Below, in pieces: positions 1,187 through 26,322 of a DNA stretch of 26,406 nucleotides. The stretch's first letter is position 1; each line of letters starts with the position of its first letter. The DNA is from Bacteroidales bacterium. Lineage in GTDB: Bacteria > Bacteroidota > Bacteroidia > Bacteroidales > UBA7960. Below the pieces are notes generated by a model. It searched no databases and was not told the origin of the DNA. It saw only the letters and a program-made list of their open reading frames with translations. The DNA is taken from NCBI GenBank assembly GCA_003560215.1, contig PWIY01000395.1, forward strand, positions 1 to 26,406. Reading direction: 5' to 3'. The position numbers were made by a program, and so were the translations under genes.

Positions 1187-4117
1187 TCAGTATGGGAAAA
1201 GATCTTCCGGAGTAAGTCTGATCACTTCACCGAAATCACGCTCCAGCGCTTCAAAATCAACCACTTGCTCATTGCCGAGGACCACATAGGTTCTTGGGCG
1301 ATCTTTAATGAAGCGATGATTGAATGTCTCAAGATCTTCCAGCGTCAGAAAAGGAGTTTCCTCGAATATTTTTTTGCGGACATCGTAATCCCGGTCAAAA
1401 TCTCTGGCGGTCAAATAATTGCTGACAATACTTCCTCCCCTGTTGATGCGTTCAGTCCGTATATCAGAAATGATACGTTCCCTGGCCAGTTCAAAGGCGG
1501 TAGTGGAAAGCGGTAAATCGTCAAAGAGTTCATTGAACGCATGAAATGACTCACCCACCTTGTCGTTCTGCGTGGCAATCACACTGGTATTCATATATTG
1601 TGCATCAGGCCTGGAAGGGTTGGAAAACCGTGCATGCGCCATATAGGCCAGGCCCCTTCTCTCCCGCATTTCCTGAAACACAATCGAATTCATTCCCCCG
1701 GAAAAATAGCGGTTATACAGGTTGACAACCGGCACCATTTCGTGGTCATATTGCTCACTTCTGGACACCGTATTCAGGTGACTCTGGTTGGCATCATAGT
1801 GGGCGAAATACACCTTTTCCTCTTTAATATCACGTGGTTCGTAATATACAGGGTCGGGAGCAGGCTTTAATGAATCCGCTGTTTCGTGATATATCTGAAG
1901 CATACGTATCACCTCCTGCATCGGATGCGGGCCGGCGTATATCACCCGGTGATCATATTTATATAGCCCATGCAAAAGGGTTACAAGCTCTTCCGCCTGC
2001 ATGTCATCCAGTTCCTCATTGGCCATTACATTGGTCGTAGGGTTATGCGGGCCATATGTGGCATAATTCTCCAGTGCCCTTTGTATTGCGTCCCGGCTGG
2101 TGTGACTGTTTCTCCGGCTTCGTTTTACACTGGAAACATGGTTATCCAATACCTCGTCATCCACATTCACGTTCCAGATAAATTCATGAAGCAAACCCAT
2201 GGATTCCTCCAGATTATCTTTCAGGCCACGCAAAGAAATCCTTGTTTCATTGCCCGAGCCCCGGATGCTGTAAGTAGAAGCAAGAATGTAAAATTCATTG
2301 CTGATCTCATCTGCACCTTTATCTTTTGTCCCTGACAAAGTAAAGTACCTGCCGAAATGGGTCATTGCCGGTTCATGATTGCTTCCCTTATCCCAGCTGA
2401 AAGTCAATTGAAAGTCTGCATCTGAATCATCATACACATACAAAAGCTCCGCGCCATTGGGCAGATACACCCGTGTGAGATCCCGGTCATAATCCAGGAA
2501 AACCGGTTCAATCGGCTCCACCTCTGCTTGCTGCATTTCCTTCAGCAGGGGAGAACGGGAATCCCGGTCCATGTGAATTGGAGTAATCGGTGGTTTTGCT
2601 ACCAGATCCACATCCAGCTCATCGACCTGCCGCTTATAAACTACTGCGTACGCATCGGTACATAAATGTTCGTTGGCAAACGCCACGATATCTTCCTTGG
2701 TGATGGCCTCAAGTTTATCAAGATAGCGTATGGTATTTTCATATGGGATTTCCTGCATAAAAGCCATCGCCAGGTCGCGGGCCCTCGAACTGATGCTTGA
2801 ATAGCGCCGTGTCTGCGTTCGCCGGATATTGTTGATGGCAGCCTCCATCATCCAGTCCGGCCAATCACCGCTTTTCAGTACCTCAACCTGCTCAAGCAAG
2901 AGCTCCTTCACTTCTTCCAGGCTTTGATCATCCTTCGGGCGACCAAACATTTCCAGTCGCGAATAGTCTGCCATTTTGGTGGTTGTTGCTGAAGTACCCC
3001 CGGCCTTCATGGGAAGGTTGATATGCTGATCCACCAGGCCGGCCCTTCCGTTCCCCAGTATGTTGCTGATCATATCCAGGTAAGGCATCTGGTCAGAGGC
3101 CGCCCCTTCAAACCGCCACGCCAGTTGCAAAAATTCTGACTGACGCCCCTCCACCTCCTTGATGACAGGTTCATTGATTGGAGGTGTTTCCGGATAAGAA
3201 AATTCCGGAACCGGAGATGGTTCCATGTGACCGAAATGCTCTTCCACAATCATGATGGCCTCATCAGGATCAAAATCACCGGCAAGAACAACCGCCATAT
3301 TATTGGGGACATAATATTCTTCAAAGAACTGCTTAATATTGACAATGGAAGGGTTTCGCAGATGCTCCGGTTCTCCCAGTGTGGTCTGGTAGGCATAAGG
3401 ATGATTCGGATAAAGTGCCTCATTCAGTGCCTGAAAGGTCATCCGCCGGTCACTGGTAAGAGACATATTCAACTCCTCGTAAACCGTTTCAAGTTCAGTG
3501 TGGAACAAGCGGATCACAGGATCCGTAAAGCGCTTCCCCTGTATTTTGGCCCAATGCTCAAGCCTGTTGGAAGGAATGTTTTCCACATAAAAAGTATAAT
3601 CACTGGATGTGGCCGCATTGGTGCCCCTGGATCCGATGGCAGTCATCAGCCTGTCGTATTCGTTGGGGATGGCGTAAGTGGAAGCAACATATGAAATACT
3701 GTCAATTTTCTCATAAATCGCTGCCCTTTTTTCTGCATCGGTTTCCTGGCGATAGTCCTCAAACAGTGCCTCGATCTTATCCAGCAAGGGCTTTTCCTTT
3801 TCCCAGTCCGTGGTTCCGAATGTAGAGGTTCCCTTAAACATCAGGTGGTCAAAATAGTGGGCCAAGCCGGTGGTCTCTGCAGGATCATGTTTGCTGCCGA
3901 CACGAATGGCAACATAAGCCTGAATTCTGGGCTCGGCATCTGTGGGAGACATATACACCTTCAGGCCGTTGTCCAGGGTATAGATCCGGGTATCAAGCGG
4001 ATCATCTTCAAAGCTTTTATACTCAAAGACAGCCTGGCCGGTGAGGACAGCAGGGAAGCTTAGTAGAAGAAATAGAAAGATAGCGTAAACTTTTTGTTCT
4101 TTTTTCCGGTAATCCAT
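1187..4117 (-). CDS. M16 family (insulinase/PqqL-like) zinc metallopeptidase, four-domain, exported; variant active-site motif HYFDH
   Basis: Signal peptide followed by Gln. Motifs TLDNGLKVY, VGSKHDP, GLAHYFDHLMFKG, NAATSSDYT, third ligand in ELETVYEE, and C-terminal M16 repeats (EMRERRGLAY). 976 aa. Confidence 0.93.
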   Translation of the reverse strand: MDYRKKEQKVYAIFLFLLLSFPAVLTGQAVFEYKSFEDDPLDTRIYTLDNGLKVYMSPTDAEPRIQAYVAIRVGSKHDPAETTGLAHYFDHLMFKGTSTFGTTDWEKEKPLLDKIEALFEDYRQETDAEKRAAIYEKIDSISYVASTYAIPNEYDRLMTAIGSRGTNAATSSDYTFYVENIPSNRLEHWAKIQGKRFTDPVIRLFHTELETVYEELNMSLTSDRRMTFQALNEALYPNHPYAYQTTLGEPEHLRNPSIVNIKQFFEEYYVPNNMAVVLAGDFDPDEAIMIVEEHFGHMEPSPVPEFSYPETPPINEPVIKEVEGRQSEFLQLAWRFEGAASDQMPYLDMISNILGNGRAGLVDQHINLPMKAGGTSATTTKMADYSRLEMFGRPKDDQSLEEVKELLLEQVEVLKSGDWPDWMMEAAINNIRRTQTRRYSSISSRARDLAMAFMQEIPYENTIRYLDKLEAITKEDIVAFANEHLCTDAYAVVYKRQVDELDVDLVAKPPITPIHMDRDSRSPLLKEMQQAEVEPIEPVFLDYDRDLTRVYLPNGAELLYVYDDSDADFQLTFSWDKGSNHEPAMTHFGRYFTLSGTKDKGADEISNEFYILASTYSIRGSGNETRISLRGLKDNLEESMGLLHEFIWNVNVDDEVLDNHVSSVKRSRRNSHTSRDAIQRALENYATYGPHNPTTNVMANEELDDMQAEELVTLLHGLYKYDHRVIYAGPHPMQEVIRMLQIYHETADSLKPAPDPVYYEPRDIKEEKVYFAHYDANQSHLNTVSRSEQYDHEMVPVVNLYNRYFSGGMNSIVFQEMRERRGLAYMAHARFSNPSRPDAQYMNTSVIATQNDKVGESFHAFNELFDDLPLSTTAFELARERIISDIRTERINRGGSIVSNYLTARDFDRDYDVRKKIFEETPFLTLEDLETFNHRFIKDRPRTYVVLGNEQVVDFEALERDFGEVIRLTPEDLFPY

Positions 4118-4134
4118 AACGAACTATTTAAAGT

Positions 4135-4278
4135 AAAACTTAACGGACGCATGCATAAACTTACCAGTATTTTTTTTCTCAGGCAATGGTTTCCGAAGCT
4201 TATCCATTTGAAAATCAAAAATAAGCATAATCTGCCGGTAACATCTACAAACGGGTGTTAATTGTTCGTTAAACCATC
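4135..4278 (-). promoter_or_regulatory. Promoter/leader of the M16 gene: -7 element TATTTTTG (4216-4223) plus tandem TGTTAA-N5-CGTTAA box (4256-4272)
   Basis: Matches the Bacteroidetes primary-sigma -7 consensus TAnnTTTG. The same blocks recur at 9641-9789 with the same spacing. No canonical -33 TTTG at the expected distance. Confidence 0.65.
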
Positions 4279-4320
4279 ATTATCTGCAAAAATGCACCAT
4301 GGTGGCAAGTAAAGTGGTGG

Positions 4321-5565
4321 CTACCGCTTTAGTATCTTCCTTACCTCACGTACGCCCGACTGCCCTTCAATGATCATCAAATACACAGAGGCAGGAAGGT
4401 GGTCTGTACGGATAACGATTTGCGCTGAGGGTTCCGGGTGCATCTGTTTTACCACCTGCCCGTAAAGATCGGTGATGGTAATGCTTTTCACGTTTGAAGC
4501 TTCCTCAATCTGAAGGAAATCCCGAAAAGGATTTGGAAACACCCTCAGCTTGCTTAATTCAGGATGTCTTGTCGGAGTGGATGGTTCAAACAAAGCTGTC
4601 AGCGTGACATCCATGGCAGGCATTACATACACCATGGAAGCTTCCTCACCAATCAATTCCCCATCCTGATCCTGCCATCTTTTGAAAGACTCCGAAGCAT
4701 CTTTGTCAACACCCAATTGAACATAATTTCCCTCTTCATACTGCCCCGCCCCTTTCAGGGGAACCTCATTTGCCGGTTCAGCCTCAAGGGCCAATACATA
4801 ACCAGGTTGGTCTGATACGCCCCCATCGGTTATGGTCCACCCGTGATTGTCAATGATAGACTCCCTTGCTTTTTCAGCTTTCCCGGCGGAAAAGCGGCTA
4901 TCGCCCCCGTGAAAATCAACCTGCCCTCTGAGCGCCTTCCCCGCCCATCCAATCAATAATCCGTTATAATTTGCCGTTGTCAGGGTTACACCCTGAAACA
5001 TATTATCCATATTTACCACACTGCTGACATCCCAGTCACCCAGATCCTGATCAAACATGATTGCAGCCTGAAACATGGCCGACATATTGGTAAGATTGCT
5101 TACGTCCCACCGACTGATATCCTGGTTGAATGAGGAAGCTCCCTGAAACATGGCCCGCATCTCGAGTACATCCCCTGTATCCCAATCCCCAATATCCTGG
5201 TTAAAGCTTGAAGCCATTGTAAACATGTTTCGCATATTTCTTACCCTGCTCACATCCCAACCTCCAATATCCTGGTTAAACGCGGAAGCACCCCTGAACA
5301 TTTGATCCATAAAAATTACCCGGCTTACATCCCAGCCTCCAATATCCTGGTTAAAGGATGTGGCATCACGGAACATATGTATCATATTGGTTACCCGGCT
5401 TACATCCCATTCCCCAATATGTTGATTAAAAGATGAAGCCCCCATAAACATATAACTGGTATGGGTTACACCTTCAGGAAGCTGAGGAGGAACCTCGAAG
5501 ATTTGAAGCCCCGTTAAAGGCACCACGAAGGTTGGTAAGCCCAAGGTCACCAAAGCTGATGGCAC
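4321..5565 (-). CDS. C-terminal fragment of the S8 protease: DUF285/BspA-like repeats, InlB B-repeat-like domain, T9SS type A C-terminal sorting domain
   Basis: Repeats MFxxAxxFNQDIxxWDVSxVxxM, motif GAGQYEEG...FKRWQD, and CTD VFPNPF...ITDLYGQVV...ASVYLMII...RKILKR. No signal peptide; the coding part probably starts near 5496. Confidence 0.8.
   Translation of the reverse strand: MPSALVTLGLPTFVVPLTGLQIFEVPPQLPEGVTHTSYMFMGASSFNQHIGEWDVSRVTNMIHMFRDATSFNQDIGGWDVSRVIFMDQMFRGASAFNQDIGGWDVSRVRNMRNMFTMASSFNQDIGDWDTGDVLEMRAMFQGASSFNQDISRWDVSNLTNMSAMFQAAIMFDQDLGDWDVSSVVNMDNMFQGVTLTTANYNGLLIGWAGKALRGQVDFHGGDSRFSAGKAEKARESIIDNHGWTITDGGVSDQPGYVLALEAEPANEVPLKGAGQYEEGNYVQLGVDKDASESFKRWQDQDGELIGEEASMVYVMPAMDVTLTALFEPSTPTRHPELSKLRVFPNPFRDFLQIEEASNVKSITITDLYGQVVKQMHPEPSAQIVIRTDHLPASVYLMIIEGQSGVREVRKILKR
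5002..5451 (-). repeat. Six tandem 75-bp (25-aa) DUF285/BspA-type repeats
   Basis: The core ccaatatcctggttaaa or variants starts at 5039, 5114, 5189, 5264, 5339 and 5414 (exact 75-bp period). ttacccggcttacatccca is identical in two adjacent units. Confidence 0.92.
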
Positions 5566-8500
5566 GGATCAGCTTCTCTGCATTATCATACCCCCTCCAG
5601 GCCGTCTCTGCAAAACCCTCTAAACGACCGCCAATTCTTACTTCATAAACTCCCTCTTCATCATAAGTGTGGTTTATGTACCCGGCCGTTGTTACCTGTT
5701 CAATGCTGCCATCTCCCCAGTCAATGGTAACACTTACGGTACCGGTTAAAGGTAAAGTAACGGTTTTCCCACTGCCAAGTTCGGTGTCGAATACCAGAAT
5801 CATCTCATCAGACGGTTCATACGCATCAAAATGCGCAAACAAACTGACATTGTCAGTTGGCATCGTCAGGGAATATGATTGTTCCTCCCCGAGGATCTCT
5901 CCATCATCAGACTTCCAGTGAACAAAATAATACCCCGGTGCCGGAACTGCTTTTACCTCGACCTCACTTTCGGCCTGAAACAACCCGGCTCCTTCAACAA
6001 AGCCGGCTCCTTCCGGAATCACCCTGGCTTGCAACACAAAAGGGGGATAGCTATATGGACCCGGGTGCCCCTGCCACTGCAAGTAGGGATAAGAGTTCCC
6101 TTCATCAATGGCCCATGTGCTTGTAAAATCCCATCCCTCGAATGAGGAAGCTTTCATCATTTTTTCTGAGGTTTTCGGGGTACCACCTGCAGAAAAATCA
6201 AGACCACTGGTAATCGTATTCCAGTAGCTGCCTGTGATATCAGTTTCTGCTTCCTCTCTCTCTGCAATCAGGCCTCCCTTTGATTCCTGAGAGGCCTTCA
6301 CATTTCCTGCCGCAAAGCAGTGAGATACTTTACCAGAGGATATTCTGCCGATCAATCCGCCAACGCTATTTCCCCCGGTCACTGCTCCGACGGCGTAAGA
6401 ATCATTCATTGAACTTTGGTTGGTCATTTGACCAGCCAGTCCTCCAACAACATGGCGTCCGGATACATCTCCTTTTGCAAAGCTTTTGTTGATGAGGCTT
6501 CCTTCCACAAGTCCGGCTATACCTCCCGCATACTGGGGCCCGTCATGGTTCAGGGTGACACTTGAAGAAGAAAGCAATACGGTTGAATTATTCTTAAGCA
6601 CACCGACCAATCCTCCGTGTCCGCTTCCTTCGCCCGACAACTTACCCTCGACATGGCTGTCATTTATCAACCCGTTTTTGCCCAAAACCCCAACCAGCAC
6701 TGCCGATTGTGCGCCTCCAAAAACACTGGCTTCTTGAATACTGACATTTTCAAGTTTTGCTCCGAAGGCAACACCAAAAAGTCCGAGCCCTGCCTTACCA
6801 GCTTGTGAAATTTTCAGTTGATTGATGGTGTGGTTCCCCCCATCAAAGTGCCCATGGAATGCTTCCTCTGAGTTCCCAATGGGCTGCCAGCCCCCTGACC
6901 TGTCCCAGGGTGCCTGACCCAGGCAAATATCCGCCACCTGTAAAAAAAACTGACCGCTGTTTTTTGCACCGGTGTATTTCCGGACATTATGCAACTGAGT
7001 TGCATCTTCGATCCTCCAGGGATTTTCTTCTGATCCATCCCCTCCTGCAAATGGGCTGGTTTCGCAAATGGCAGTTATTCCGATATCGTCCACGTTCCAG
7101 TAATAGGCCCACTCACCCTGGAAGTTCCACCTGAAACGGACCTGGGATTCCCCTGCCAATTCCGGGATTTTTTTTCGGAAAAAAGAGGGGTTTGGGGTGG
7201 TTTCCATCCACTCTTCTAAGAGTTCCCAGGTCGATCCATCGTCAATGGAATAATAAAGTGAAGCTACAGACAAATCTTCATATTGACGGAAAAAGTGAGA
7301 AAAGGAAAGGGTCACATGTGTGTGACCTGAAAAATCAATTAATGGAGTAACCAGGTCTGTGTTTTGTTTATTGCCGGGGCCAAATAAATCACTGTTAACA
7401 TAAGCATAATAACCAGTGGTTCCTTCCAACCCCCGGTCATGCCCCCCGAATTTCCAAACCTGACCGTTTCCCTCATGGTCAGTAATATCCCAGCAAACCG
7501 GCGGTTGAATCGATTCGTCAAAGTCTTCGGTGAAAGGGAACTGAGCCACCCGGTCACATGCTGTCATCACATGGGCCCTTCTTCCCATGGAGTATCGCCC
7601 TGACTCATCCACGGCAAAAATCTGATAGTAATAGTTGGTTGCCTCCTTCAAACCGGAATGAATAAAACCGTTTTCAGATCCGCTGTAAAGGACAATCCCC
7701 CCCCCCGGGATCGAATCTCCGGGTCCATAATTGGCCCCCGGTTCCGGGACACCGAAGTCATTATCGGGGCTCCAGGCCAGCATAACTTCATCCTGGTCTG
7801 AGTTGGGCTGCCATTGAAGATTTACCGCATCAACTCCCAGGGCTTCAGCCAGCAGGGTTTGGGGATTGGGCACCCCATCAAGTGGCATATTACCGGAAAT
7901 GATCAGGGAAAAATGCTGCTTGCCATCGCTGAGGGCATCTTTATGGTTGATCTTAAGCGTAAAAATTTCATTTTCGCCCGGTGATTCAATATGAATCATT
8001 TCAACATTGTCACGATAATTATCTCCGGTAGAAGCGGCCTTTTCAGGTTGTGAAGGGTCAAGCACATAAGGTTTATAAACAGAATCATGCTCGCAAATGA
8101 TACGCATATCCAGGTCATTGACCAACATCAGGTCTTCAGGATTCAGAATGGGAGGATCTACCGGTGTACCAGGCTTATCCGTCCAGACAATGGTTGCCCT
8201 GAGAGGTTCCTCTCCGGTTGCCTTCACCTGTATGCTGACTTCTTCACCATCTTCCAGGATTTTTTCATGGATGTGCAAAGATCCGTGGGCATGATTGTTG
8301 CGCATGATATTTGCTGCAGCGTGAACATCCAGCATTCCCCAACCATAACGATAATCAGGGCCGGGTGCTCCCCCGATATGATCATTTGCACTATGAAGCA
8401 ACAATGCTTTTATGGTGGAAGCCTTGATTACCTCGCCAGGAAAAAGCTTTTCCTGATACTCAAGCAACAGCCCCACAGAGCCACTGACCATTGGCCCTGA

Positions 8501-9625
8501 CATTGAAGTACCGCTATAGGTTGCATAAGCATCATCTGCAGCAGCCAACGAAGAGAACACATATCGTCCTTTGGCCACAAGGTCAGGCTTGATTCTTCCG
8601 TCATCGGTAGGACCCCAGGCACTGAAATGCGTCATTTCTCCATTGGGGTATACCGCTCCGACACTGATGATATTTTTTGCCAATGCGGCATGAGACAGTG
8701 AGGTATAGCCATCATCTCCTCCGTCAATTTCCCGGACTGCCTCGCTGGTCACCCAGTTGCCATCAATATTTACGTAATGTGTGGTTCCTGGCTCAGGCCC
8801 GCGCCCCCTTTCGTTTCCCGCTGATTTAACAATCAGGTAGTGGGGAGCATGGTAAGCAATCTCATCCCACTCCATGGCATGATCATCATAGAAACCAAAA
8901 AAATAATCCTCAGTTTCACTGACATTGGGGTCTCCATGCCAGTACCATTGATTCATACTGTTATTAAACTGCCAACCGGTGGCATACCCATAAGAGTGCT
9001 GGGAAACCTGGAGTCCTTCGGCTGCCGCTGCAGCCATCTGAGCATTGTCATCATTCCAGTCATAGGCATCCAGATGGGCTTTCCAGGACATACCGCGGGC
9101 TGCGGCATTCACACCCCCTGCCATCATTATACCCGCCACATGGGTTGCATGACTGCTGAATGCAGTAGCATTGTCGCGCTGAACCACGCGACTCCCTGCT
9201 TCAGTCATAAATTCCTGATGAGTATTCCGCACCTTGCCCCCGTCCCAGATACCAAGCGTTTGCCCTGCACCTGAGAGATTAAATCCCCCACCTCCTCCCG
9301 GGTAAAGCTTGTCTGCGTTTATACTGGACGCACCCTCAGCATTGTGGGTGACATAATACATCGGCCGCCCATCCCTGATTCGCATCAATTCCATCACCCT
9401 GCCATCTTCCAGCTCTTTTCGAACAATTAAACCAAGGGAATCGGCCACACGCATGGCATAAGCACGTTCGGCCTTAAAACGTTCACTGTGGGTTGCTGAG
9501 AGCTTAAGCAGGTTCTCCTGCTGCTGCTTTGTCTGGGCATACATGGGTTCAGTAAGGGCAGTAAGGGCAGCAAGGGCAACAAGGAGAAAAAAGGAACCCT
9601 TACTCAACAGTCGGGGAAGAAGCAT
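5474..9625 (-). CDS. N-terminal part: subtilisin-like S8 serine protease with beta-sandwich, FN3-like, MAM/cleaved-adhesin-like, GLUG-repeat, InlB B-repeat-like and PKD-like domains
   Basis: Signal peptide (..MYA|Q). Catalytic motifs GIWDGG (Asp), SHATHVAG (His), KSAGN (oxyanion Asn), GTSMSGP (Ser). FN3-like LKEATNYYYQIFAVD; GLUG-type FAGGDGSEENPWRI and VGGLAG/VGGLIG; PKD-like TIDWGDG. Confidence 0.92.
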   Translation of the reverse strand: MLLPRLLSKGSFFLLVALAALTALTEPMYAQTKQQQENLLKLSATHSERFKAERAYAMRVADSLGLIVRKELEDGRVMELMRIRDGRPMYYVTHNAEGASSINADKLYPGGGGGFNLSGAGQTLGIWDGGKVRNTHQEFMTEAGSRVVQRDNATAFSSHATHVAGIMMAGGVNAAARGMSWKAHLDAYDWNDDNAQMAAAAAEGLQVSQHSYGYATGWQFNNSMNQWYWHGDPNVSETEDYFFGFYDDHAMEWDEIAYHAPHYLIVKSAGNERGRGPEPGTTHYVNIDGNWVTSEAVREIDGGDDGYTSLSHAALAKNIISVGAVYPNGEMTHFSAWGPTDDGRIKPDLVAKGRYVFSSLAAADDAYATYSGTSMSGPMVSGSVGLLLEYQEKLFPGEVIKASTIKALLLHSANDHIGGAPGPDYRYGWGMLDVHAAANIMRNNHAHGSLHIHEKILEDGEEVSIQVKATGEEPLRATIVWTDKPGTPVDPPILNPEDLMLVNDLDMRIICEHDSVYKPYVLDPSQPEKAASTGDNYRDNVEMIHIESPGENEIFTLKINHKDALSDGKQHFSLIISGNMPLDGVPNPQTLLAEALGVDAVNLQWQPNSDQDEVMLAWSPDNDFGVPEPGANYGPGDSIPGGGIVLYSGSENGFIHSGLKEATNYYYQIFAVDESGRYSMGRRAHVMTACDRVAQFPFTEDFDESIQPPVCWDITDHEGNGQVWKFGGHDRGLEGTTGYYAYVNSDLFGPGNKQNTDLVTPLIDFSGHTHVTLSFSHFFRQYEDLSVASLYYSIDDGSTWELLEEWMETTPNPSFFRKKIPELAGESQVRFRWNFQGEWAYYWNVDDIGITAICETSPFAGGDGSEENPWRIEDATQLHNVRKYTGAKNSGQFFLQVADICLGQAPWDRSGGWQPIGNSEEAFHGHFDGGNHTINQLKISQAGKAGLGLFGVAFGAKLENVSIQEASVFGGAQSAVLVGVLGKNGLINDSHVEGKLSGEGSGHGGLVGVLKNNSTVLLSSSSVTLNHDGPQYAGGIAGLVEGSLINKSFAKGDVSGRHVVGGLAGQMTNQSSMNDSYAVGAVTGGNSVGGLIGRISSGKVSHCFAAGNVKASQESKGGLIAEREEAETDITGSYWNTITSGLDFSAGGTPKTSEKMMKASSFEGWDFTSTWAIDEGNSYPYLQWQGHPGPYSYPPFVLQARVIPEGAGFVEGAGLFQAESEVEVKAVPAPGYYFVHWKSDDGEILGEEQSYSLTMPTDNVSLFAHFDAYEPSDEMILVFDTELGSGKTVTLPLTGTVSVTIDWGDGSIEQVTTAGYINHTYDEEGVYEVRIGGRLEGFAETAWRGYDNAEKLIRAISFGDLGLTNLRGAFNGASNLRGSSSAS

Positions 9626-9640
9626 ACAATATATTTAAGA

Positions 9641-9789
9641 AAAACTTAACGAAATATCACCTTGTGGGTTACAACGATTTTCCTTATTTTGCAAGGGTAT
9701 TTTGGGTGTCATATCTTTTTGACAATCAAAAATAAGAATATTTTAACGGCCATGCCATCAGGCAGCTGTTAATTGTTCGTTAAACCATC
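9641..9789. promoter_or_regulatory. Divergent S8 / histidine-kinase promoter region: -7 element TATTTTTG on - (9727-9734) and TGTTAA-N5-CGTTAA box (9767-9783)
   Basis: 23-bp exact match to 4256-4278 and 20/22 match to 4208-4229, with the same 43-bp offset between the aatcaaaaataag block and the box. Confidence 0.65.
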
Positions 9790-9812
9790 TTTTTCATTAT
9801 TCTTTCAGTTTT

Positions 9813-11081
9813 GTGAGCAAGAAACAGTTCATATTGATCATTGTCTTTTCCGCAATTGTTTTGGGGGGGCTGGGTATTTCACAGATTCGCTGGATCTCCA
9901 ATGCGCTTGACCTGTCTGAAGAACAATTTGATCATCGTGTCACCCTTGCATTGAACGAAGTGGTTGATATCCTTGCCACCTCCACCGAATCATACAGGGG
10001 TTGTACCAATACGGACTGTGAGCATTACGATCCTGAAGTAAGCCACCTTGAACACGTCATCAATTACCAGTTTCTTGATATTACCATCCAGGGTGTTTTC
10101 AGCAATTACGACCTGCCGGAGAATTATCAGTACAGTCTGATCAACATCAGTGAAGATGAAGAGGTTCATCAGGGGATTTACAGCAACAAAACTTCTCTCA
10201 AACCCCATACAGATTGCGATTCCTGGGAAGCAGAAAATTATCAGCTTGGGGTATATTTTCCGCAAAAGCAACATCACCTGCTCCTCGAAATGTGGTTTTG
10301 GCTCGCCTTATCGGCATTGTTGCTTATCGCTGTAGCCTGGCTGCTATATTTCGTGATCTTCAGGTTCATGCAGCAAAAAAAGGTGGCGGATATCAAAAAT
10401 GATTTCATCAACAATATGACCCATGAATTCAAGACCCCATTGTCCACCATTTCACTTGCTTCAGAAGTACTGCTTAAGTCAGACCCAAAAGCAGCCCAGG
10501 AAAGGTTCCGGCATTACTCCCGGATTATTCAGGATGAAAACAACCGGATGAAAACCCAGGTCGAATACATTCTTAAGATGGCGTTGCTGCAAAAAAACGG
10601 GGTTAAACTAAAATTGTCCTATAAAAACATTCACAATCTTATCAATGACGCCATTGATACCTTATGCCTGGAACAGTTCGAAAAGAAAATTAACATTCAC
10701 TACCGCTACCAGGCCGGAGATCCCATGGTTTTTGTGGATGAAATGCACTTTTATAATATCGTGACCAATCTGATCAGCAATGCAGCCAAATACTCCAAAG
10801 ACAGTGTTGACATTACCATCAGCACGAAAAATGCGAACAACGGGGTAATCCTCTCTTTTGCTGACAATGGCATTGGCATTCGCAAAGCCGAAGTTCCGCA
10901 TATTTTTGATAAATTTTACCGGGTTCCCACGGGGAGCCTGCATAACGCCAAAGGATTCGGACTCGGTCTGTATTATGTCAAAGAAATGGTAAATGCACAC
11001 AACGGGAGCATTGAGGTGGAAAGCGAACCGCACAAAGGAACGACATTCAGCATCTATTTCCCGTCTTTTGAGAAGAATTAA
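9813..11081 (+). CDS. Membrane sensor histidine kinase (HisKA + HATPase_c), RprX-like
   Basis: Two TM helices flanking a periplasmic domain. H-box THEFKTP, N-box NLISNAAKYS, G1 DNGIGI, F-box IFDKFYR, G2 GFGLGL. GTG start. Confidence 0.95.
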   Translation: MSKKQFILIIVFSAIVLGGLGISQIRWISNALDLSEEQFDHRVTLALNEVVDILATSTESYRGCTNTDCEHYDPEVSHLEHVINYQFLDITIQGVFSNYDLPENYQYSLINISEDEEVHQGIYSNKTSLKPHTDCDSWEAENYQLGVYFPQKQHHLLLEMWFWLALSALLLIAVAWLLYFVIFRFMQQKKVADIKNDFINNMTHEFKTPLSTISLASEVLLKSDPKAAQERFRHYSRIIQDENNRMKTQVEYILKMALLQKNGVKLKLSYKNIHNLINDAIDTLCLEQFEKKINIHYRYQAGDPMVFVDEMHFYNIVTNLISNAAKYSKDSVDITISTKNANNGVILSFADNGIGIRKAEVPHIFDKFYRVPTGSLHNAKGFGLGLYYVKEMVNAHNGSIEVESEPHKGTTFSIYFPSFEKN

Positions 11082-11101
11082 TTTGTTATTCTTTGGTTTT
11101 C

Positions 11102-11800
11102 ATGAAAAAAGTTAAAGGAAGAATCCTGCTGGTAGAAGATGATCGCAACCTTGGTTATATTGTGAAGGACTTTCTGGAAATGTCCGGTTATGAAGTGGTA
11201 CACCATGAAGATGGCAACAGCGGGCTGGAGGCCTTCAAAAACGACAATTTTGATCTCTGCCTGCTGGACATCATGCTTCCCAATAAGGACGGGTTTAGGT
11301 TATCGGACGATATCCGCAAGCTGGACAGCCTTGTGCCTGTCATTTTTATCACTGCCAGGACCATGACAGAAGATAAACTCAAAGGATTTAAGCACGGTGC
11401 AGATGATTATATCACCAAACCTTTCAGCACAGAGGAACTTGTACTTCGGATTGAGGCCATCCTCAAGAGAATTGACATTGCGGGGATTGATAGTGATCAT
11501 AACGTGTTTCCACTCGGTAAATATGTCTTCGATTACTCACAGAAAAAACTAATTCTTGGAGAGCAGGAAACAACACTTACCAATAAACAGGCCGAATTGC
11601 TGCGCCTGCTTTATCTAAACAGAAACAAATTGCTGAAGCGCGAAACAGCCCTTAAAACCATCTGGGGAGAGGATGATTATTTTATGGGAAGAAGCATGGA
11701 TGTGCACATTGCCAAGTTGCGCAAACTGCTAAGGGAAGACCCCGGGATCAGTATTGTCAACATTCATGGAGCCGGATTCAGGTTAGAGGTCGATGTGTAA
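11102..11800 (+). CDS. OmpR/PhoB-family response regulator, RprY-like
   Basis: VEDD, phospho-acceptor LLDIMLP, FITAR, DDYITKPF, and winged helix RSMDVHIAKLRK...NIHGAGFRL. ATG at 11102 is preferred to the ORF-track TTG at 11093. Confidence 0.95.
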   Translation: MKKVKGRILLVEDDRNLGYIVKDFLEMSGYEVVHHEDGNSGLEAFKNDNFDLCLLDIMLPNKDGFRLSDDIRKLDSLVPVIFITARTMTEDKLKGFKHGADDYITKPFSTEELVLRIEAILKRIDIAGIDSDHNVFPLGKYVFDYSQKKLILGEQETTLTNKQAELLRLLYLNRNKLLKRETALKTIWGEDDYFMGRSMDVHIAKLRKLLREDPGISIVNIHGAGFRLEVDV

Positions 11801-11826: not shown

Positions 11827-13428
11827 TCAGAAAAGGAACCCAAGGGAAAGACGCATGTTTAAATTATGCCCCTGATCCAAATCCTCAAGATCGGGAAATA
11901 TCATATAACTGCCTTCAATATTCATGAAGACAGTAGAAAAGCGGTCGATGGGAAAACGTTTGGTAGAAATGTCGAACCCAAGCTTTATCAAATAACAGTT
12001 TTCGCTGAAGTACCGGAAGTCCAGCTCCGGAATGGCATCAATGTAGTTGGGGAAAGGAATAAATACCGCATCGGAATCAATCACGAAGCGCCCGCCAATG
12101 GCAATATGCGGATCGATATTATACCCATTAAGCCTGAAAAAATGTTGATATTCAAGTTTTGAAGTCAGGCTCGTGGCGTTATAGAAACCATAATTTTGCA
12201 CCGGATAGTGGGTGGCCTCATAAAGGCGGGCATTCGCTGAAGCTTTGATTTGATATTGAAGCGGCCTGCTGCTTCCTTTCTTCATAAAATGATAATCTAC
12301 CCCGGCAGCATAGTCGTTCACAATATGCTTGCCTTCAATCCAGCGGATCGTCCGGATAATGGTATAAAATACCCCATCAACCGGTTGAGAATGGGTTTGT
12401 TGCCTGACTTCTGTGGCATTGGTAATCTCTGCAGAAGCATTTAAACCTATGTGGTGAATACTACCCTGTCTCTCCCATAGCAGGCTTCCCTGGTATGCCA
12501 GCCGGTCATAGTCTGTAATTCCGTTAATCAGACGGTATGAACTCCCCACAAGCGCTTCAGTATTCAGATGCCCATAATCAAATGAATGAAGCACGGCAAA
12601 ACCCCCTACCGAATGGCTGAGCTGCAGCCCGCCGCGGTATCCGCTACCCTCATACCTTACTGTTTCGGTTCCGGTAAAATTTCCACTGGCACTGTAATGC
12701 CCCATGCCCATGTGGTAAAACAAAGTGTGCCTTTCGTCCAGCTCCGCCCTGACGTTAACCATATTGGTTTCAACCGTATACCCACCACTCAAACCAATGG
12801 AAAAGTTATCATGGTTGTACACCAGCCCCGGCGTGAATTTGGCCCGGGCAATGGTGCTGCGGTTTCTTAAATCCTGCATCTTAGCACCTATGGCGGATTC
12901 ATAGTTCATACGGATCCCGGTAAATAAGCGTCCGTCCAGCATCGGATAGGCCATTTCAGCTAAAAAGAAATAGCCCTCCTGCCGCTGTTTGCCCCCTATG
13001 GTATCTCCCAGGGTATACAAATTGCGATTGTGGCGGAAATCCATCACCCCATTATACATCAAGTCTTTGTATTGCTGATTCTGATAACCGAAAATCCCGT
13101 TGACTTTCACATTTCCGACCTGCTGCTTGCTTTGGGTCTGGAAAAACAGTGATCGGGTTTCACCTGGATCCATGGCCCTCCTGAGAGGTTCATCCTCAAA
13201 AGCCAGGGCTGAAGTTGCCCGGGAAATCCTTTCTTCAGGCTCAAAAAACAATTGCCCGGCCGGGTTCTCCGTCAGACTCCATTGATTCATCAGCACCGGG
13301 TGCGAGTAAAGCATCATCTTTTTCTCCACAGACAAGGAATCTTCAAAAAAAGAAGCTATAAATGTGTTTGACCCGAACCCTTGCAGGGATAATAAAAACA
13401 AGGCAAAAAGAATGCAGGACCTAATCAT
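11827..13428 (-). CDS. Outer-membrane beta-barrel protein (DUF6850-like)
   Basis: Signal peptide, alternating amphipathic strands rich in Tyr/Gly, and a C-terminal aromatic (RLSLGFLF, BAM signal). It is the third gene after the TBDR and lipoprotein. The DUF name is from memory. Confidence 0.7.
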   Translation of the reverse strand: MIRSCILFALFLLSLQGFGSNTFIASFFEDSLSVEKKMMLYSHPVLMNQWSLTENPAGQLFFEPEERISRATSALAFEDEPLRRAMDPGETRSLFFQTQSKQQVGNVKVNGIFGYQNQQYKDLMYNGVMDFRHNRNLYTLGDTIGGKQRQEGYFFLAEMAYPMLDGRLFTGIRMNYESAIGAKMQDLRNRSTIARAKFTPGLVYNHDNFSIGLSGGYTVETNMVNVRAELDERHTLFYHMGMGHYSASGNFTGTETVRYEGSGYRGGLQLSHSVGGFAVLHSFDYGHLNTEALVGSSYRLINGITDYDRLAYQGSLLWERQGSIHHIGLNASAEITNATEVRQQTHSQPVDGVFYTIIRTIRWIEGKHIVNDYAAGVDYHFMKKGSSRPLQYQIKASANARLYEATHYPVQNYGFYNATSLTSKLEYQHFFRLNGYNIDPHIAIGGRFVIDSDAVFIPFPNYIDAIPELDFRYFSENCYLIKLGFDISTKRFPIDRFSTVFMNIEGSYMIFPDLEDLDQGHNLNMRLSLGFLF

Positions 13429-13473
13429 TTGTCTTAAAAATAACCTTGTGAATATTGGACGCTACATCAATTG

Positions 13474-13507
13474 AAGATGGACGGGTGCCCAAACCCGTCC
13501 ATCTTTT
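13474..13507. terminator. Strong intra-operon stem-loop (terminator or mRNA-stabilising hairpin)
   Basis: Perfect 13-bp stem aagatggacgggt (13474-13486) / acccgtccatctt (13493-13505) with a 6-nt loop. The T-run is better on + than on the coding (-) strand. Confidence 0.65.
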
Positions 13508-13535
13508 GTGATTTGATCAATCGAAACTGATGCGA

Positions 13536-14729
13536 TCAGTCAACCACATCGGGCACATGCCCCGGATTGGGGACCACGCCACCAATCCAATCTTCGGAGG
13601 AATTGTTGGTGTTCCTCAAAAATACACTGCCGTCAATGACCTTCTCCACCTTACGACGGACACTATGGCCTCTTCCCTCGGGATTCCAGACAAATCCGGC
13701 ATCCACCGAAACAGGCAACTGTTTATTGCGGCGGTCTTCTTCCGGACGTACAATATCCACGGCATCCACCACCCAGTCGGCATCCACCATCAACATATTA
13801 AAACCACTTCCGGTAGTTGGATTTTGCATAAAATTGTCGGGGTCCTCAACAAAAGCTTCCCAGTCAAGTCCCGTCGGCAAACGCCAGGTAATCAAGGCCC
13901 GGCCATTCACATCCATGGTCCAGTTATTCATGGCCGGAGAGGTGGTATAGATCTCAATCATGTTCGGCACGTTAATATTGTCCGGGGTACCCCGATCATG
14001 ATCGACAAAAGCCTCAAAATCAGCGTTGGAAAGGTCCACAGGTGAGTCCGGGTTGAGGGTGTCTGCCTGGTGATTCATCGCCACATTGGCCAAAACAATT
14101 GCCTCCCGGGGCTCCACCGGATAGTCCTCACCACTGCCGGGGAACATCCACGACTGGAAGATAATCGGAATCCTTTCCAGCATATTGCCTTCCCCGTCAA
14201 CCCACTGCGATGGGTTGATTGCATTCTGCGCGTGAATTCCAATACACAAACCATCAATGTAGATAACCTCATCGCTGTTGTTATAAATTTCCACAAAAAT
14301 GTCGTTGTTGTAATTGGTGCCTTCGGGGGTTGTGGAACCTGCAAAGAAAACTTCACTGATTACCAGTCCTCCTCCTTTTGCAACAGCCAAAAGCTGCACC
14401 TCAAAATGAGCGAGGTCAGTTTCCACCGACTGATTTTCAATGATCCCATTAAACGCAAAATCATCGGTCTCAAAGTTCGAAACAATGTTGTAGTTACCAC
14501 CTTCAACGGCAAAGCTTGCAATACCCTGGGCGTCTGTTTCTGCCTGGGAATCAATACCGGTAATCATATTGGACATGGTTACAGGAATCCCGGCACGGGT
14601 ATCGTAATCATATCCATCGGGGTAAATCACCTCTACCGTCACATCGTAGAGCGTAGCACCATCATCGTCGCATCCAAGGAAAGCGACAGCGCCAATTGCC
14701 ATTAAGCAAATCATTAATAATTTTTTCAT
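13536..14729 (-). CDS. Surface-exposed lipoprotein (DUF4876-like), probable TBDR partner
   Basis: Lipobox AFLG|C followed by acidic DDDG (Bacteroidetes lipoprotein export signal type), an N-terminal beta-sandwich, LVISEVFFAGS...VEIYNNSDEVIYIDGLCIG, and C-terminal NTNNSSEDW. Confidence 0.75.
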   Translation of the reverse strand: MKKLLMICLMAIGAVAFLGCDDDGATLYDVTVEVIYPDGYDYDTRAGIPVTMSNMITGIDSQAETDAQGIASFAVEGGNYNIVSNFETDDFAFNGIIENQSVETDLAHFEVQLLAVAKGGGLVISEVFFAGSTTPEGTNYNNDIFVEIYNNSDEVIYIDGLCIGIHAQNAINPSQWVDGEGNMLERIPIIFQSWMFPGSGEDYPVEPREAIVLANVAMNHQADTLNPDSPVDLSNADFEAFVDHDRGTPDNINVPNMIEIYTTSPAMNNWTMDVNGRALITWRLPTGLDWEAFVEDPDNFMQNPTTGSGFNMLMVDADWVVDAVDIVRPEEDRRNKQLPVSVDAGFVWNPEGRGHSVRRKVEKVIDGSVFLRNTNNSSEDWIGGVVPNPGHVPDVVD

Positions 14730-14770
14730 AATACTTCTTGTTTTGGTTAGTGAAAAATGGATGATAATGG

Positions 14771-17635
14771 TTAAATCCTTATGGTTAATTCTCCGCTGAA
14801 ATAAAGACTCTGGTTTCTCCTGGTATAATTGTCAACCCTTCCCCCAATTCGTTGCAAGGGTCGGTAGTAAGTCACATTATTCACATTAAAGGAAATGGTG
14901 GCGGCCCTGGACAACTCCTTGGTCAACCGCATATTTACCTGAAATGCAGGCTTATACCTCATGGGAACAAAGTGGTAATTGTTGCTGTGAAACCTTACCA
15001 GGTCTGCATAGGGCCTTATGTCAGCATACTCTGGACGCCACGGCTTGATATTGCCGCTCAGATCCATCACAGCAATCGGGTGATAGTATTTTCGCTGACT
15101 AACGTCGCCATACACATCATCTGTTGGCTCCAGGGTGTAGACAATGGGGTTTCCATCCGCATCCTCGTGGGTGTTCTGTACCCTCTCAACCCAGATGGCC
15201 TGAAGGTTTAGTGACACGACCATTGCAAGAGGCTGTATCTGAGTTACTGTTCTTAAATTGCTGACAAAACGCTGGTTAATACGACCCCCATGTCCGGCAG
15301 GATAAAGCCCGACTACCTGGTCGGAGACACTGGTTACTGTGGAAAAGTAGTCTTTTGTGGATCTGCGATGCTGGTGCATATATGCCCCACTCAAAAGAAA
15401 ACTGGTGTAAAGAGATTCAACCCGGCCAAAATCAAGCTCAAATTCCAGCCCGTACTTGGTCATTTCTTCCGTATTGTCCGGGTATGAATAAGACCGGAGC
15501 AGGGTATCCGGATGTGAAGGCACAATGACCGTCTCTCCCGTTTCGGGATTCTGGTAGGTGACCCCAACTCCAGGGACGAACTCAGGGCGCGCATTGGGAA
15601 TAGTCAATCGTTCATACCGGTTAAAAACCGCCGGATAATAATTCCTGTGTAAGCCAAATCCATCTGTTTGTTTTTCATAGTAACCCGTCAGCTGCACGTC
15701 CACACGTCCCACTTTGATATCCAGTCCTGCTTCATATTTTTTGTTTTGTGCCGGACGCAGATCATAGTTTCGGGTATCTTCAATGACGATGGTATTGACA
15801 ACTGCAAGAGCATGGGGCGGATCATAATAATTAAAGCTGAGAAAATCCCGGTAGGACTTGTCAGGATACAAATGTGAAATGGTAGGCGTCATGGACAATA
15901 TGCCAAATCCCAATCTGAATCCAAGGTCACTGACAAGCTGCTCCCGGTTTCGTAGGATGCGATACCTTGCGTTGAAACGGGGATCCAGCGTGGTAAGATC
16001 CTCCGAAGAAGAAAATGGCCCGTCTGGCTGAATGTTGTTAAACCTTACACCGGCATGTAATTCGAACTCTGTGCCTCCCAATGGCAGTGTTAGTTCTTCG
16101 GCAATATATAAGGCCAGGCGATTCAAGGCAGGAATGTCATAAAAAGGACGGGGACGAATACCGGCAGAACTGGTGGGATCCGGGGGCCTGGTACGGTCAA
16201 AGATGCTGCCCTGCCCCTCATTGCCGCTTAACCGGTAATCAACCCCTGCACGGACTGTATGTTCAGTGGGTCCGATTTCAAATGTCCGGGTACCGGAAAG
16301 GCTGGCATTCAAATAATAAGGTCTGCCGTCTATGGTCACATCAGAATAATACCTGGGATTCAGAAAAAGGGCCTCAAACTCACCTGGTTCTGTGTTGACC
16401 GCCAGGGTACTTACCCCGGAAAAGGAGCGGAACCTTATTTCCTGATTTTTCTGCCGCTGGATACTACCTGAAAGGTTCAGGTTTAAGTTGGTAAGAACTG
16501 CAGAATTCAGCGCCCACCTTCCCGACATGGTCATATTTAAACTTCTGTCGTGGGAAAGAAAGGATTCTTCACGAAGATGATCCGGATCGTGGCCGCTCAG
16601 GCTGCGGCTGTCTGAATACCGGGTGGAAAAAGAAAAGGTAAGCGGCTTGCTTTGCTGAAAAAAAACATTGTTGTATGAAAGGTTTCCGTTGATGCGGTTA
16701 TAGGATCGATACGGGGTGCGGATATCGGTATGGTTTTGCAAAAAGTCCGCATTGATGTTGAGGGTTCCCCCCACAAAACCAGTCAGGTTAAAACCTTTTC
16801 CGATAGAGGCCTGCTTGATATTCGGATCTGCCTTAACCCGTGTAGTCAAAGGGGTACTGCCCCTGATGGTATTGATACGAACCACCCCGGTCAGGACATC
16901 CCCTTCTTCCACCCCCGGAATCCCCTGCACGACTTCGATTGATTCGATATTGTCTACAGAAAACTGCCGCATATCGACACCCTGCATCGCGGTTGACTGA
17001 AAAGACCCGGTTCCGGTAGCTGTACTAAGCATCTGCATATTCGCAATATTGGAAGCCGGTGCCCCATCTACTACAAGTCCGGTACCCAAACTGGCCATCG
17101 GCCTTTGGGTTGAAGGCCCGGCTGCCCCAACTATCTCCCTGATCCCAAGTTGACTGACGCCGGAGAGATCGGGGTTCATTGCGAGCTGACCGGGCAATAG
17201 CTGCATCAGCTCAGTCACATCCGATGCCTGAAGATGTTCAATGGCAGACCTTCCGATCACCGATGAGGTGGCAATTCCCGAGCCCCGCCTTGCCACAACC
17301 TCCACCTCACCAAGCGCAAGTGAAGTTGGGGTCAGTCCAATATCCAGGGTGGTTTCCTCGGTAACATCCACCTCAGTTTTTTTGGTATTGTAACCCAAAC
17401 ACCTTGCCAATACCACGTGTTTTCCGGCTGGTACGTTCTTGAGAACAAAATTACCCTCCAGACTGGTTACTGTCCATAAATTCAACTCCTCAATACCGAC
17501 AGCGACCATCGGCATGGGTTGATCATTCTCGGTATCCGTTACCTTGCCACTTACAGAAAACCTTTGTTGCTGCGAAAAAGCGGTTAATGCAACTAAACAA
17601 TTGAGCAACAAAAGAAAAATTAACTTTCTCAACAC
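14771..17635 (-). CDS. TonB-dependent receptor with N-terminal CarboxypepD_reg-like domain
   Basis: GTG start and signal peptide (AFS|QQQ). Motifs VSGKVTD...LGY, TonB-box region LGEVEVVA, plug DNIESIEVVQG...GVVRINT, and barrel LRPAQNKKYEAGLD. No SusD-type gene follows. Confidence 0.95.
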   Translation of the reverse strand: MLRKLIFLLLLNCLVALTAFSQQQRFSVSGKVTDTENDQPMPMVAVGIEELNLWTVTSLEGNFVLKNVPAGKHVVLARCLGYNTKKTEVDVTEETTLDIGLTPTSLALGEVEVVARRGSGIATSSVIGRSAIEHLQASDVTELMQLLPGQLAMNPDLSGVSQLGIREIVGAAGPSTQRPMASLGTGLVVDGAPASNIANMQMLSTATGTGSFQSTAMQGVDMRQFSVDNIESIEVVQGIPGVEEGDVLTGVVRINTIRGSTPLTTRVKADPNIKQASIGKGFNLTGFVGGTLNINADFLQNHTDIRTPYRSYNRINGNLSYNNVFFQQSKPLTFSFSTRYSDSRSLSGHDPDHLREESFLSHDRSLNMTMSGRWALNSAVLTNLNLNLSGSIQRQKNQEIRFRSFSGVSTLAVNTEPGEFEALFLNPRYYSDVTIDGRPYYLNASLSGTRTFEIGPTEHTVRAGVDYRLSGNEGQGSIFDRTRPPDPTSSAGIRPRPFYDIPALNRLALYIAEELTLPLGGTEFELHAGVRFNNIQPDGPFSSSEDLTTLDPRFNARYRILRNREQLVSDLGFRLGFGILSMTPTISHLYPDKSYRDFLSFNYYDPPHALAVVNTIVIEDTRNYDLRPAQNKKYEAGLDIKVGRVDVQLTGYYEKQTDGFGLHRNYYPAVFNRYERLTIPNARPEFVPGVGVTYQNPETGETVIVPSHPDTLLRSYSYPDNTEEMTKYGLEFELDFGRVESLYTSFLLSGAYMHQHRRSTKDYFSTVTSVSDQVVGLYPAGHGGRINQRFVSNLRTVTQIQPLAMVVSLNLQAIWVERVQNTHEDADGNPIVYTLEPTDDVYGDVSQRKYYHPIAVMDLSGNIKPWRPEYADIRPYADLVRFHSNNYHFVPMRYKPAFQVNMRLTKELSRAATISFNVNNVTYYRPLQRIGGRVDNYTRRNQSLYFSGELTIRI

Positions 17636-17807: not shown

Positions 17808-17901
17808 GAAAAAAGAGCCTGAATCGGCTTAACTAAAATACCAGTCGCCCGCCTAATAGTCAAGCCTGAACCTACAGATTAACAATAAATTAACAGCCCC
17901 A

Positions 17902-25503: not shown

Positions 25504-25524
25504 GTTTTTTTCATCATAAAAGGC

Positions 25525-26322
25525 TTATGGTGAACCATCAGGCTCCATATAGACCCTGAAAAGTGCAAAATCGCCATTGTGATTTGGCCATTCCCAGTTA
25601 TCCTCATCCCCTCCAAACTGACCGATCGAAGACGGTGGCACCCCGACCATACGCACATCCGAATAATCAGCATAAACAAACAACAAGTACTGCCCTTCTG
25701 AACCCATCCTGAACAGTTCCACTGATCCCCTGTAAGGGCCGTCAGCAGAAACTTCGCGCGCAATGGCACTTCTGGCCTGACGAATGGTCCTGTTCCGCTC
25801 CTCCTGCGACATTTCATCGTCAACTGCTTTAAAAACCCGATCTGTCACATCTTCAATATGCAGTAAAAATGATACTGACAGATCCGGGACATGAATCTCT
25901 TCATCAGGCCCCATGGCCCAAAACCCATCTTTCAGATAATCGTTCCCGACACTGCTCAATGCCTGAAATCGGTCAATGGCACAATGGTGATTGGTCAGCA
26001 GTAATCCTTCAGGTGAAATCATTTCCCCTGTACATCCCCCACCAAAAATAGCGACAGCATCCTTCAGACTCGACTCATTGACCGAATAGATTTGTTCCGC
26101 GGTAAGTTCAAGGCCCAGTTCCTCCATATCGTCCATAACCATTTCCTCAAGATAGGGCAAAAGCCACATCCCTTCGTCAGCCTGTAAAGTTCCACGGGCT
26201 GGCAAAAGCAAAATCAAAAAGGCAATAATCAGGGAGGTTTTCCGGGATGGATTCCGGGAAAGCTGATCGAAAAACCGGCATCTGCCGACCCCCAACATTG
26301 AATCAACCATAAAACAAAGCAT
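25525..26322 (-). CDS. N-terminal fragment of the S46 peptidase (signal peptide, catalytic His and Asp)
   Basis: ADEGMWLL, FGGGCTGEMISPEGLLLTNHHC, DVRMVGVPP, DNWEWPNHNGDF. Ends at the premature TAA. Confidence 0.6.
   Translation of the reverse strand: MLCFMVDSMLGVGRCRFFDQLSRNPSRKTSLIIAFLILLLPARGTLQADEGMWLLPYLEEMVMDDMEELGLELTAEQIYSVNESSLKDAVAIFGGGCTGEMISPEGLLLTNHHCAIDRFQALSSVGNDYLKDGFWAMGPDEEIHVPDLSVSFLLHIEDVTDRVFKAVDDEMSQEERNRTIRQARSAIAREVSADGPYRGSVELFRMGSEGQYLLFVYADYSDVRMVGVPPSSIGQFGGDEDNWEWPNHNGDFALFRVYMEPDGSP

Follow-up and report, generated by a model that had tools for sequence, protein, structure and literature searches.

The window, by which we mean the whole 26,406-nucleotide stretch of DNA analysed here, belongs to a metagenome-assembled genome of an uncultured soda-lake Bacteroidales (assembly G000; 2.29 Mb in 397 contigs, 77% complete). 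It carries the genes of a two-component system together with two peptidase genes and a TonB-receptor operon. The features relevant to this work are as follows.

1187-4117, minus strand: M16 peptidase (Pfam Peptidase_M16 and M16_C), a predicted target; its orthologue is divergent from the kinase gene in the related genomes G023 and G003
4129-4145, minus strand: M16 leader block 3, CGTTAAGTTTTACTTTA, a conserved block close to the start codon that contains a degenerate pair of half-sites
4216-4223, minus strand: putative Bacteroidota -7 element TATTTTTG of M16, then GATTTTCAAA; part of a composite match at 4216-4272 and aligned with six homologous promoters
4256-4278, minus strand: box copy 1, exact 23-mer, predicted operator of the M16 promoter
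4321-9625, minus strand: S8 subtilase with DUF285 repeats and a T9SS C-terminal sorting domain (Pfam), a predicted target; displayed as two overlapping open reading frames, the S8 subtilase at 5474-9625 and the DUF285/T9SS sorting domain at 4321-5565
9635-9651, minus strand: S8 leader block 3, CGTTAA-N5-TCTTAA; it matches the direct repeat with 2 mismatches, lies 9 nt ahead of the ATG and has the same sequence in G023 and G003
9727-9734, minus strand: putative -7 element TATTTTTG of S8, then GATTGTCAAAAAG; part of a composite match at 9727-9783 and included in the promoter alignment
9767-9789, minus strand: box copy 2, exact 23-mer, predicted operator of the S8 promoter, orthologous to the M16-promoter box of G023 and G003
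9813-11081, plus strand: sensor histidine kinase, 422 aa (Pfam HisKA and HATPase_c; alignment A2 of 12 orthologues)
11093-11800, plus strand: OmpR/PhoB-type response regulator, RprY paralogue, predicted to bind the box (PF00072 Response_reg and PF00486 Trans_reg_C)
11827-17635, minus strand: operon of a TonB-dependent receptor, DUF4876 and DUF6850 (Pfam), a predicted target whose upstream site is kept in four species
17879-17895, minus strand: third site, TGTTAATTTATTGTTAA, which matches the core of the box and lies, in gene orientation, ahead of the TonB-receptor operon

The kinase has two transmembrane segments that enclose a periplasmic domain of ~135 aa, followed by HisKA and HATPase_c, and the regulator consists of a receiver and a winged-helix Trans_reg_C domain, an architecture that binds tandem repeats. 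Across alignment A2, the periplasmic sensor domain (kinase residues 1-190, 9813-10382) has a Cys at position 69 that is almost invariant, and the consensus P-H-x-x-C-L-S-C-L-W directly before the second transmembrane segment; this pattern of Cys and His may reflect metal or cofactor binding, or a disulfide. Contigs from three independent soda- and salt-lake sequencing runs (X2, X3 and X4) have two extra bases (GT) behind position 5497, so that in those populations S8 and the DUF285/T9SS tail are probably encoded by a single uninterrupted gene; strain variation or a mistake in the assembly may explain the frameshift of the window at 5474-5565. At the far end of the contig, an S46 (DPP7/11-like) peptidase gene (24079-26322) is split into two reading frames, 25525-26322 and 24079-25503, and no site was seen in the 84 bp upstream of it that are present on the contig.

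The first-pass annotation of this DNA had singled out a 23-bp box, TGTTAATTGTTCGTTAAACCATC, as exactly repeated upstream of the two peptidase genes, and we found it on the plus strand at both positions, 4256-4278 and 9767-9789. There were no matches with up to 3 mismatches in 100 dinucleotide shuffles of the window, and no further copies with up to 4 mismatches in the whole assembly. The core of the box is, as had been proposed, a direct repeat with an 11-bp period: TGTTAA-N5-YGTTAA has 3 matches in the window against 0.01 expected. Genome-wide there are five copies, three of them inside the window, within 14 kb of the regulator gene, and the remaining two on contigs C375 and C188. The copy at 17879-17895, upstream of the TonB-receptor operon, had escaped the first-pass annotation. 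N5 is the most frequent spacing between half-sites in the genome among all spacers from 0 to 15.

Both copies of the box are covered without differences by contigs from X2 (3900-5352 and 9191-9865), X3 (3914-4494 and 9658-9969) and X4 (4120-4595 and 9536-9788), and the repeat is thus not an assembly artefact. One contig of X4 matches up to position 9789, the last base of the second box, and then continues for ~37 nt that resemble the flank of the first box rather than the kinase side, which may represent a variant arrangement in that sample. An Rfam scan of the window returned no RNA family, and so gives no support to a reading of the box as an RNA element.

The distances reported earlier between box and start codon, 139 bp for M16 (4117) and 142 bp for S8 (9625), are accurate. 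On the gene strand both promoters have the same order, TTAACG-N5-TTAACA, then exactly 32 nt, then TATTTTTG (4216-4223 and 9727-9734), which agrees with the -7 spacing first noted. The exact 32-nt gap, with the repeat in reverse orientation, is found at S8, M16 and porin-like promoters of G000 and four related genomes, G023, G003, G002 and G026. Beyond the two promoters of the window, this set consists of the M16 promoters of G023 and G003, the promoter of a ~400-aa gene with no Pfam match in G000 (contig C375), G023 and G003, and that of the same ~400-aa gene where it is divergent from the kinase gene in G002 and G026, where M16 or two S46 genes follow. At the S46 promoter of G002 the gap is 42 nt. 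In all promoters of the set the -7 box is immediately followed by GA-N3/4-(G)TCAAA or TCTAA (9712-9740 and 4205-4230 in the window), and in the S8 copy this region forms a 7-bp inverted repeat, TTTTTGA-TTG-TCAAAAA; the element may mark where transcription initiates or where a second factor binds.

We searched 77 genomes of the family for the composite pattern of repeat, 32 nt and -7 box. There were 8 matches, all of them in G000, G023, G003 and G026, and none for a reversed control. With a threshold of E < 1e-50, close orthologues of the sensor kinase are encoded by the same four genomes and by G002, and by no other of the 77. Hence, the composite promoter is present in 4 of 5 genomes with a close kinase orthologue, as compared to 0 of 72 without one; the fifth carrier, G002, has the variant TACTTTTA.

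The two promoter copies have an unequal history. Synteny around the kinase gene is the same in G023 and G003 except that the divergent gene there is M16 rather than S8. The S8 promoter of the window aligns over its whole length with the M16 promoter of G023 and G003, while the similarity of the window's M16 promoter to the others is confined to three blocks, namely the box, the -7 box plus GATTnTCAAA, and the leader block. The nearest homologues of S8, 56-64% identical, are located elsewhere and are not among the genes with exact sites in G023 and G003. Given the whole-length promoter match and the position of M16 in the sister genomes, S8 has in this lineage taken over the ancestral M16 promoter, and M16 is now driven from a second, more diverged copy. 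As an alternative, the sister species might have lost S8 through recombination of the two promoter copies; we rejected this because their single promoter resembles the S8 copy throughout. Hand counts over the 32-nt spacer give 69% for the sister promoter versus the S8 copy, against 50-56%.

Such a history raises the question of whether the two boxes are a neutral leftover of a promoter duplication that accompanied the insertion of S8, with no regulatory meaning. This explanation draws on the orthology between the S8 promoter and the M16 promoters of G023 and G003 and on the diverged second copy in front of M16, and the last 4 bases of the 23-mer, which are identical between the two copies and variable between species, hint at shared descent or gene conversion of the copies. 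However, between the three conserved blocks the promoter copies are ~50% identical, whereas the box is conserved at 23 of 23 positions, and the same half-sites with other spacers are found at unrelated promoters and across the phylum. Contradicted as it is by conservation between species, a neutral origin is very improbable.

The kinase loci of other genomes give further evidence that the repeat belongs to this two-component system. Close orthologues of the kinase are encoded in G023 (84% identity), G003 (80%), G026 (53%) and G002 (47%), and more distant full-length relatives in other families of the order. Absence of the motif from orthologous loci would have argued against the proposed operator; instead, with up to 1 mismatch, the repeat is present upstream of the kinase gene and in its orientation at 10 of 11 relatives' loci, a count that overstates independence since these genomes are kin. 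The half-sites are conserved in these sites and the spacers are variable. We then extended the search with alignment A2 to named genome records of the phylum and retrieved 80 loci, with 50 full-length matches, from Bacteroidales, Cytophagales, Flavobacteriales, Saprospiraceae and others. The repeat (up to 1 mismatch) lies within 300 bp upstream in 22 of the 50 full-length loci, in every case in the orientation of the kinase, as compared to a background of 7 matches per 397 kb, both strands counted, in the rest of the loci. The other 28 full-length loci have no match at this stringency; N4 sites are present in four of them and weaker GTTAA repeats in several. Among named isolates, Dyadobacter flavalbus NS28 (L099) matches over the full length and its upstream repeats are spaced N4/N3, not N5; others, such as Roseivirga sp. 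E12, match in the kinase core only. Many loci have two sites 21 bp apart and thus four half-sites. The order proximal site, 26-28 nt, TAnnTTTG -7 box and short leader is found in about 20 lineages; in G026 and G002, 36-37 nt separate site and -7 box, one helical turn more. Judged from sequence, this layout is the classic signature of a positively autoregulated system of the OmpR/PhoB type. The neighbourhood of the pair varies: no generally conserved neighbour was found across the 80 loci, the pair follows prs, rplY and pth in some Bacteroidales (4 of 80 loci; loci of this type include L039, L041, L043, L076-L078 and L080), and an MFS/POT-like transporter gene lies downstream of it in L077 and G043.

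The kinase gene of the window itself departs from this layout. The second box ends 23 nt from the GTG start at 9813, as had been noted, and in G000, G023 and G003 the gap between the repeat and the start codon (GTG or TTG) is 29 nt and contains no -7 box; the start codon is backed by a conserved M-x-K-K N-terminus in A2. Judging from these distances, an ancestral autoregulatory promoter has been remodelled in this clade, and autoregulation in this genome is doubtful. The site on the kinase side appears now to serve the divergent promoter. Thus, of the earlier proposal that the pair controls both proteases and itself, the first half is favoured by the peptidase promoters with their fixed, activator-like distance, and the second half is in doubt.

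A protein bound this close to the kinase start, about 23-24 bp away, would block transcripts arriving from upstream, and OmpR-family proteins are known to repress some promoters. The box might therefore be a repressor operator or act both ways, shutting off the peptidase promoters or blocking read-through transcripts into the kinase gene, and the weaker repeats in the S8 and M16 leaders, directly before the start codons, fit such a role as well. At seven promoters, however, the site precedes the -33 region and keeps a constant distance to the -7 box, in helical phase with it. A good -33 element (TTTG at the usual distance) is absent from the peptidase and porin-like promoters examined, which is the layout of activator-dependent promoters. 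Position, fixed phasing and a weak core promoter together argue for activation, and we regard repression as quite unlikely.

To ask which genes the system might control, we examined all exact sites in the genomes of the genus. The relatives have 5-7 exact sites each, as compared to 0-1 for a reversed control, and these sites are intergenic and flank an orthologous set of genes: the kinase/regulator pair, M16, S8 and S46 peptidases, a porin-like protein, a Glt_symporter-like transporter and the TonB-receptor operon. In three species the Glt_symporter-like gene and the porin gene are divergent neighbours; in G002 the symporter-like gene is paired in this way with S46. The site at the TonB receptor, DUF4876 and DUF6850 genes is present in G000, G023, G003 and G026, and through S46 in G002; the spacers differ in the orthologous sites of G023, G003 and G026, and additional TonB receptors have sites in G023 and G003. 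In general, orthologous targets (porin-like protein, symporter, TonB receptor, M16 and S46) retain the site despite changes in partners and spacers. Of all predicted targets, the most constant is the Pfam-less ~400-aa protein (G000:C375:3221-3784; G023 L055:205-1410), which looks like an outer-membrane porin by its resemblance to Porin_O_P, BBP2 and alginate-export proteins. That resemblance raised the possibility of a phosphate regulon, which we rejected: the regulator and kinase score far under the Bacteroidota PhoB and PhoR cut-offs, and there are no pst or pho targets. Three contig ends in G002 repeat the site upstream of an SBBP-repeat gene, with S8 homologues a few kb downstream on C68 and C69. 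Other occurrences seem incidental: an intergenic site between hisS and an NYN-CSD gene in three close species may reflect inertia rather than function, and the exact matches of G002 at nusG/tuf and beside a thioredoxin gene look like chance. Taken together, the predicted targets look like a regulon for foraging on protein, peptides and amino acids. The earlier description of a proteolysis regulon holds for the peptidases, but is too narrow for a set that extends to the TonB-receptor operon, the porin-like protein, the glutamate-symporter-like transporter and, in relatives, S46.

The pair had been described as RprX/RprY-like. RprY is indeed the best-matching family for the regulator (286 bits), but this score is under the NCBIfam RprY equivalog cut-off of 370, and a regulator encoded elsewhere in the genome, on contig C88, scores higher, at 339 bits. 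Across relatives, regulators that adjoin long RprX-type kinases score 335-353 bits and regulators of the window type 286-290 bits. The kinase is 422 aa long as compared to about 515-585 aa for RprX-type kinases, which align only to its residues 140-417, and a long RprX-type kinase is also present elsewhere in this genome. The pair is thus a paralogue of RprXY of Bacteroides and Porphyromonas and not RprXY itself; its kinase has a different sensor and a patchy distribution, close orthologues being limited to 5 of the 77 genomes of the family.

This paralogy bears directly on what binds the box. RprX-type operons have TGTTAA-N4-TGTTAA 27-29 nt before a -7 box at ~11 of 16 relatives' loci, the same half-site at the same -7 distance as in the window system, and the recognition helices of the window regulator and of the RprY type, RSMDVHIAKLRK and RSMDVYISKLRK, differ at two positions. 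The N4 pairs are themselves a candidate RprY autoregulatory operator (G000:C350:1816-1841; L018, L020, L022, L025-L028 and L030-L033), sometimes with a third half-site at N5. Since half-site and recognition helix are shared so closely, the binder could be or include RprY: the box might be bound mainly by the RprY-type regulator of C88, with the neighbouring pair only a target or a bystander. We consider this unlikely. Loci and targets of the paralogue have N5 and the proximal pairs of RprX-type operons have N4, in this genome no site belongs to both sets, and the composite promoter is confined to genomes with the paralogous kinase, whereas RprX-type kinases are present in nearly all genomes searched. 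With a half-site common to the whole RprY clade, spacing is the sole visible discriminator; given the four window-type loci with only N4 sites and the several with weaker GTTAA repeats, the distinction between N4 and N5 is a tendency and not a law.

We conclude, with a probability of roughly 0.7, that the box is the operator through which the adjacent regulator activates the peptidase genes and, from other sites of this type, the porin-like gene, the TonB operon and probably the symporter gene. The first-pass suggestion of an operator for an OmpR-family pair thus gains from conservation at kinase orthologues and from the fixed -7 distance, and the operator itself is a prediction. The motif scan that had been recommended for this genome and its relatives bears the suggestion out, in that sites of this type, of which we collected roughly 40 in all, recur in relatives and across the phylum. 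Several features are those of OmpR/PhoB operators: direct-repeat half-sites with a period of 10-11 bp, a regulator with receiver and Trans_reg_C domains, and a site conserved at the system's own locus and at its targets. In the model that we propose, the kinase (9813-11081) would respond to a physiological signal by phosphorylating the regulator (11093-11800), which would bind as a head-to-tail dimer to the TGTTAA-N5-YGTTAA repeat. If transcription starts just after the -7 element, the repeat would be positioned at roughly -46 to -62, and the dimer would recruit RNA polymerase to promoters without a good -33 element. The T9SS-secreted S8 protease and the M16 peptidase would thereby be switched on and, from the further sites, so would the TonB-receptor operon (17879-17895), the porin-like protein and probably the glutamate-symporter-like transporter.

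Comparable operators are known from other systems. The WalR (YycF) box of Firmicutes has the consensus TGTWAH-N5-TGTWAH, which TGTTAA-N5-TGTTAA fits, but the likeness is one of operator shape only: the window regulator scores 139 bits against a YycF cut-off of 340, and phylum, sensor and targets all differ. Promoters of the PhoB, PhoP and PmrA type have tandem hexamers with an 11-bp period, bound by a head-to-tail dimer in either orientation and at phased distances. The tandem hexamers and the 11-bp period are shared by the sites described here, whereas the predicted core promoter is the Bacteroidota type with a TAnnTTTG -7 element, and half-site and regulon are different. No published consensus for the TGTTAA motif, for RprY/RprX sites or for Bacteroidetes peptidase regulons was found in the literature searched. 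HaeR of the P. gingivalis HaeSR system (PG0719/PG0720) binds its own promoter and those of a TonB-dependent receptor, an ABC transporter, kgp and rgpA (PMC3764172, PMC5706477); the HaeR motif is not given in these two papers. Compared by published target classes, HaeR has the same mix of targets as we predict for the window regulator, and on this analogy HaeSR is probably the nearest functional analogue. The sensors differ, in that HaeS has a periplasmic domain of 104 aa and H226 as compared to ~135 aa and H204 in the window kinase.

The regulation proposed here is of an ordinary type, a two-component activator with a tandem-repeat site. To our knowledge, few transcription-factor operators have been defined in Bacteroidota, and TGTTAA-N5-TGTTAA is a testable candidate that comes in two promoter layouts, with 26-28 nt or 32 nt before the -7 box depending on its orientation. 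Since conservation of the motif extends from Bacteroidales to Cytophagales and Flavobacteriales, one binding experiment in a cultured member could annotate the system across the phylum. The contrast between N4 and N5 could serve as a simple test case for how cross-talk between paralogous regulators is avoided, and the predicted regulon ties secreted proteases to outer-membrane uptake. A wider possibility, which we put forward tentatively and do not favour on balance, is that TGTTAA repeats are the operator of the RprY clade throughout the phylum, that spacing, N4 for RprXY and N5 for its paralogue, is mainly what separates the two, and that N5 drives a protein-foraging regulon that captures genes. 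If so, the N5 regulon would comprise the T9SS protease, M16, S46, the porin, the TonB receptor and the amino-acid symporter, and would gain members by promoter capture, as with S8.
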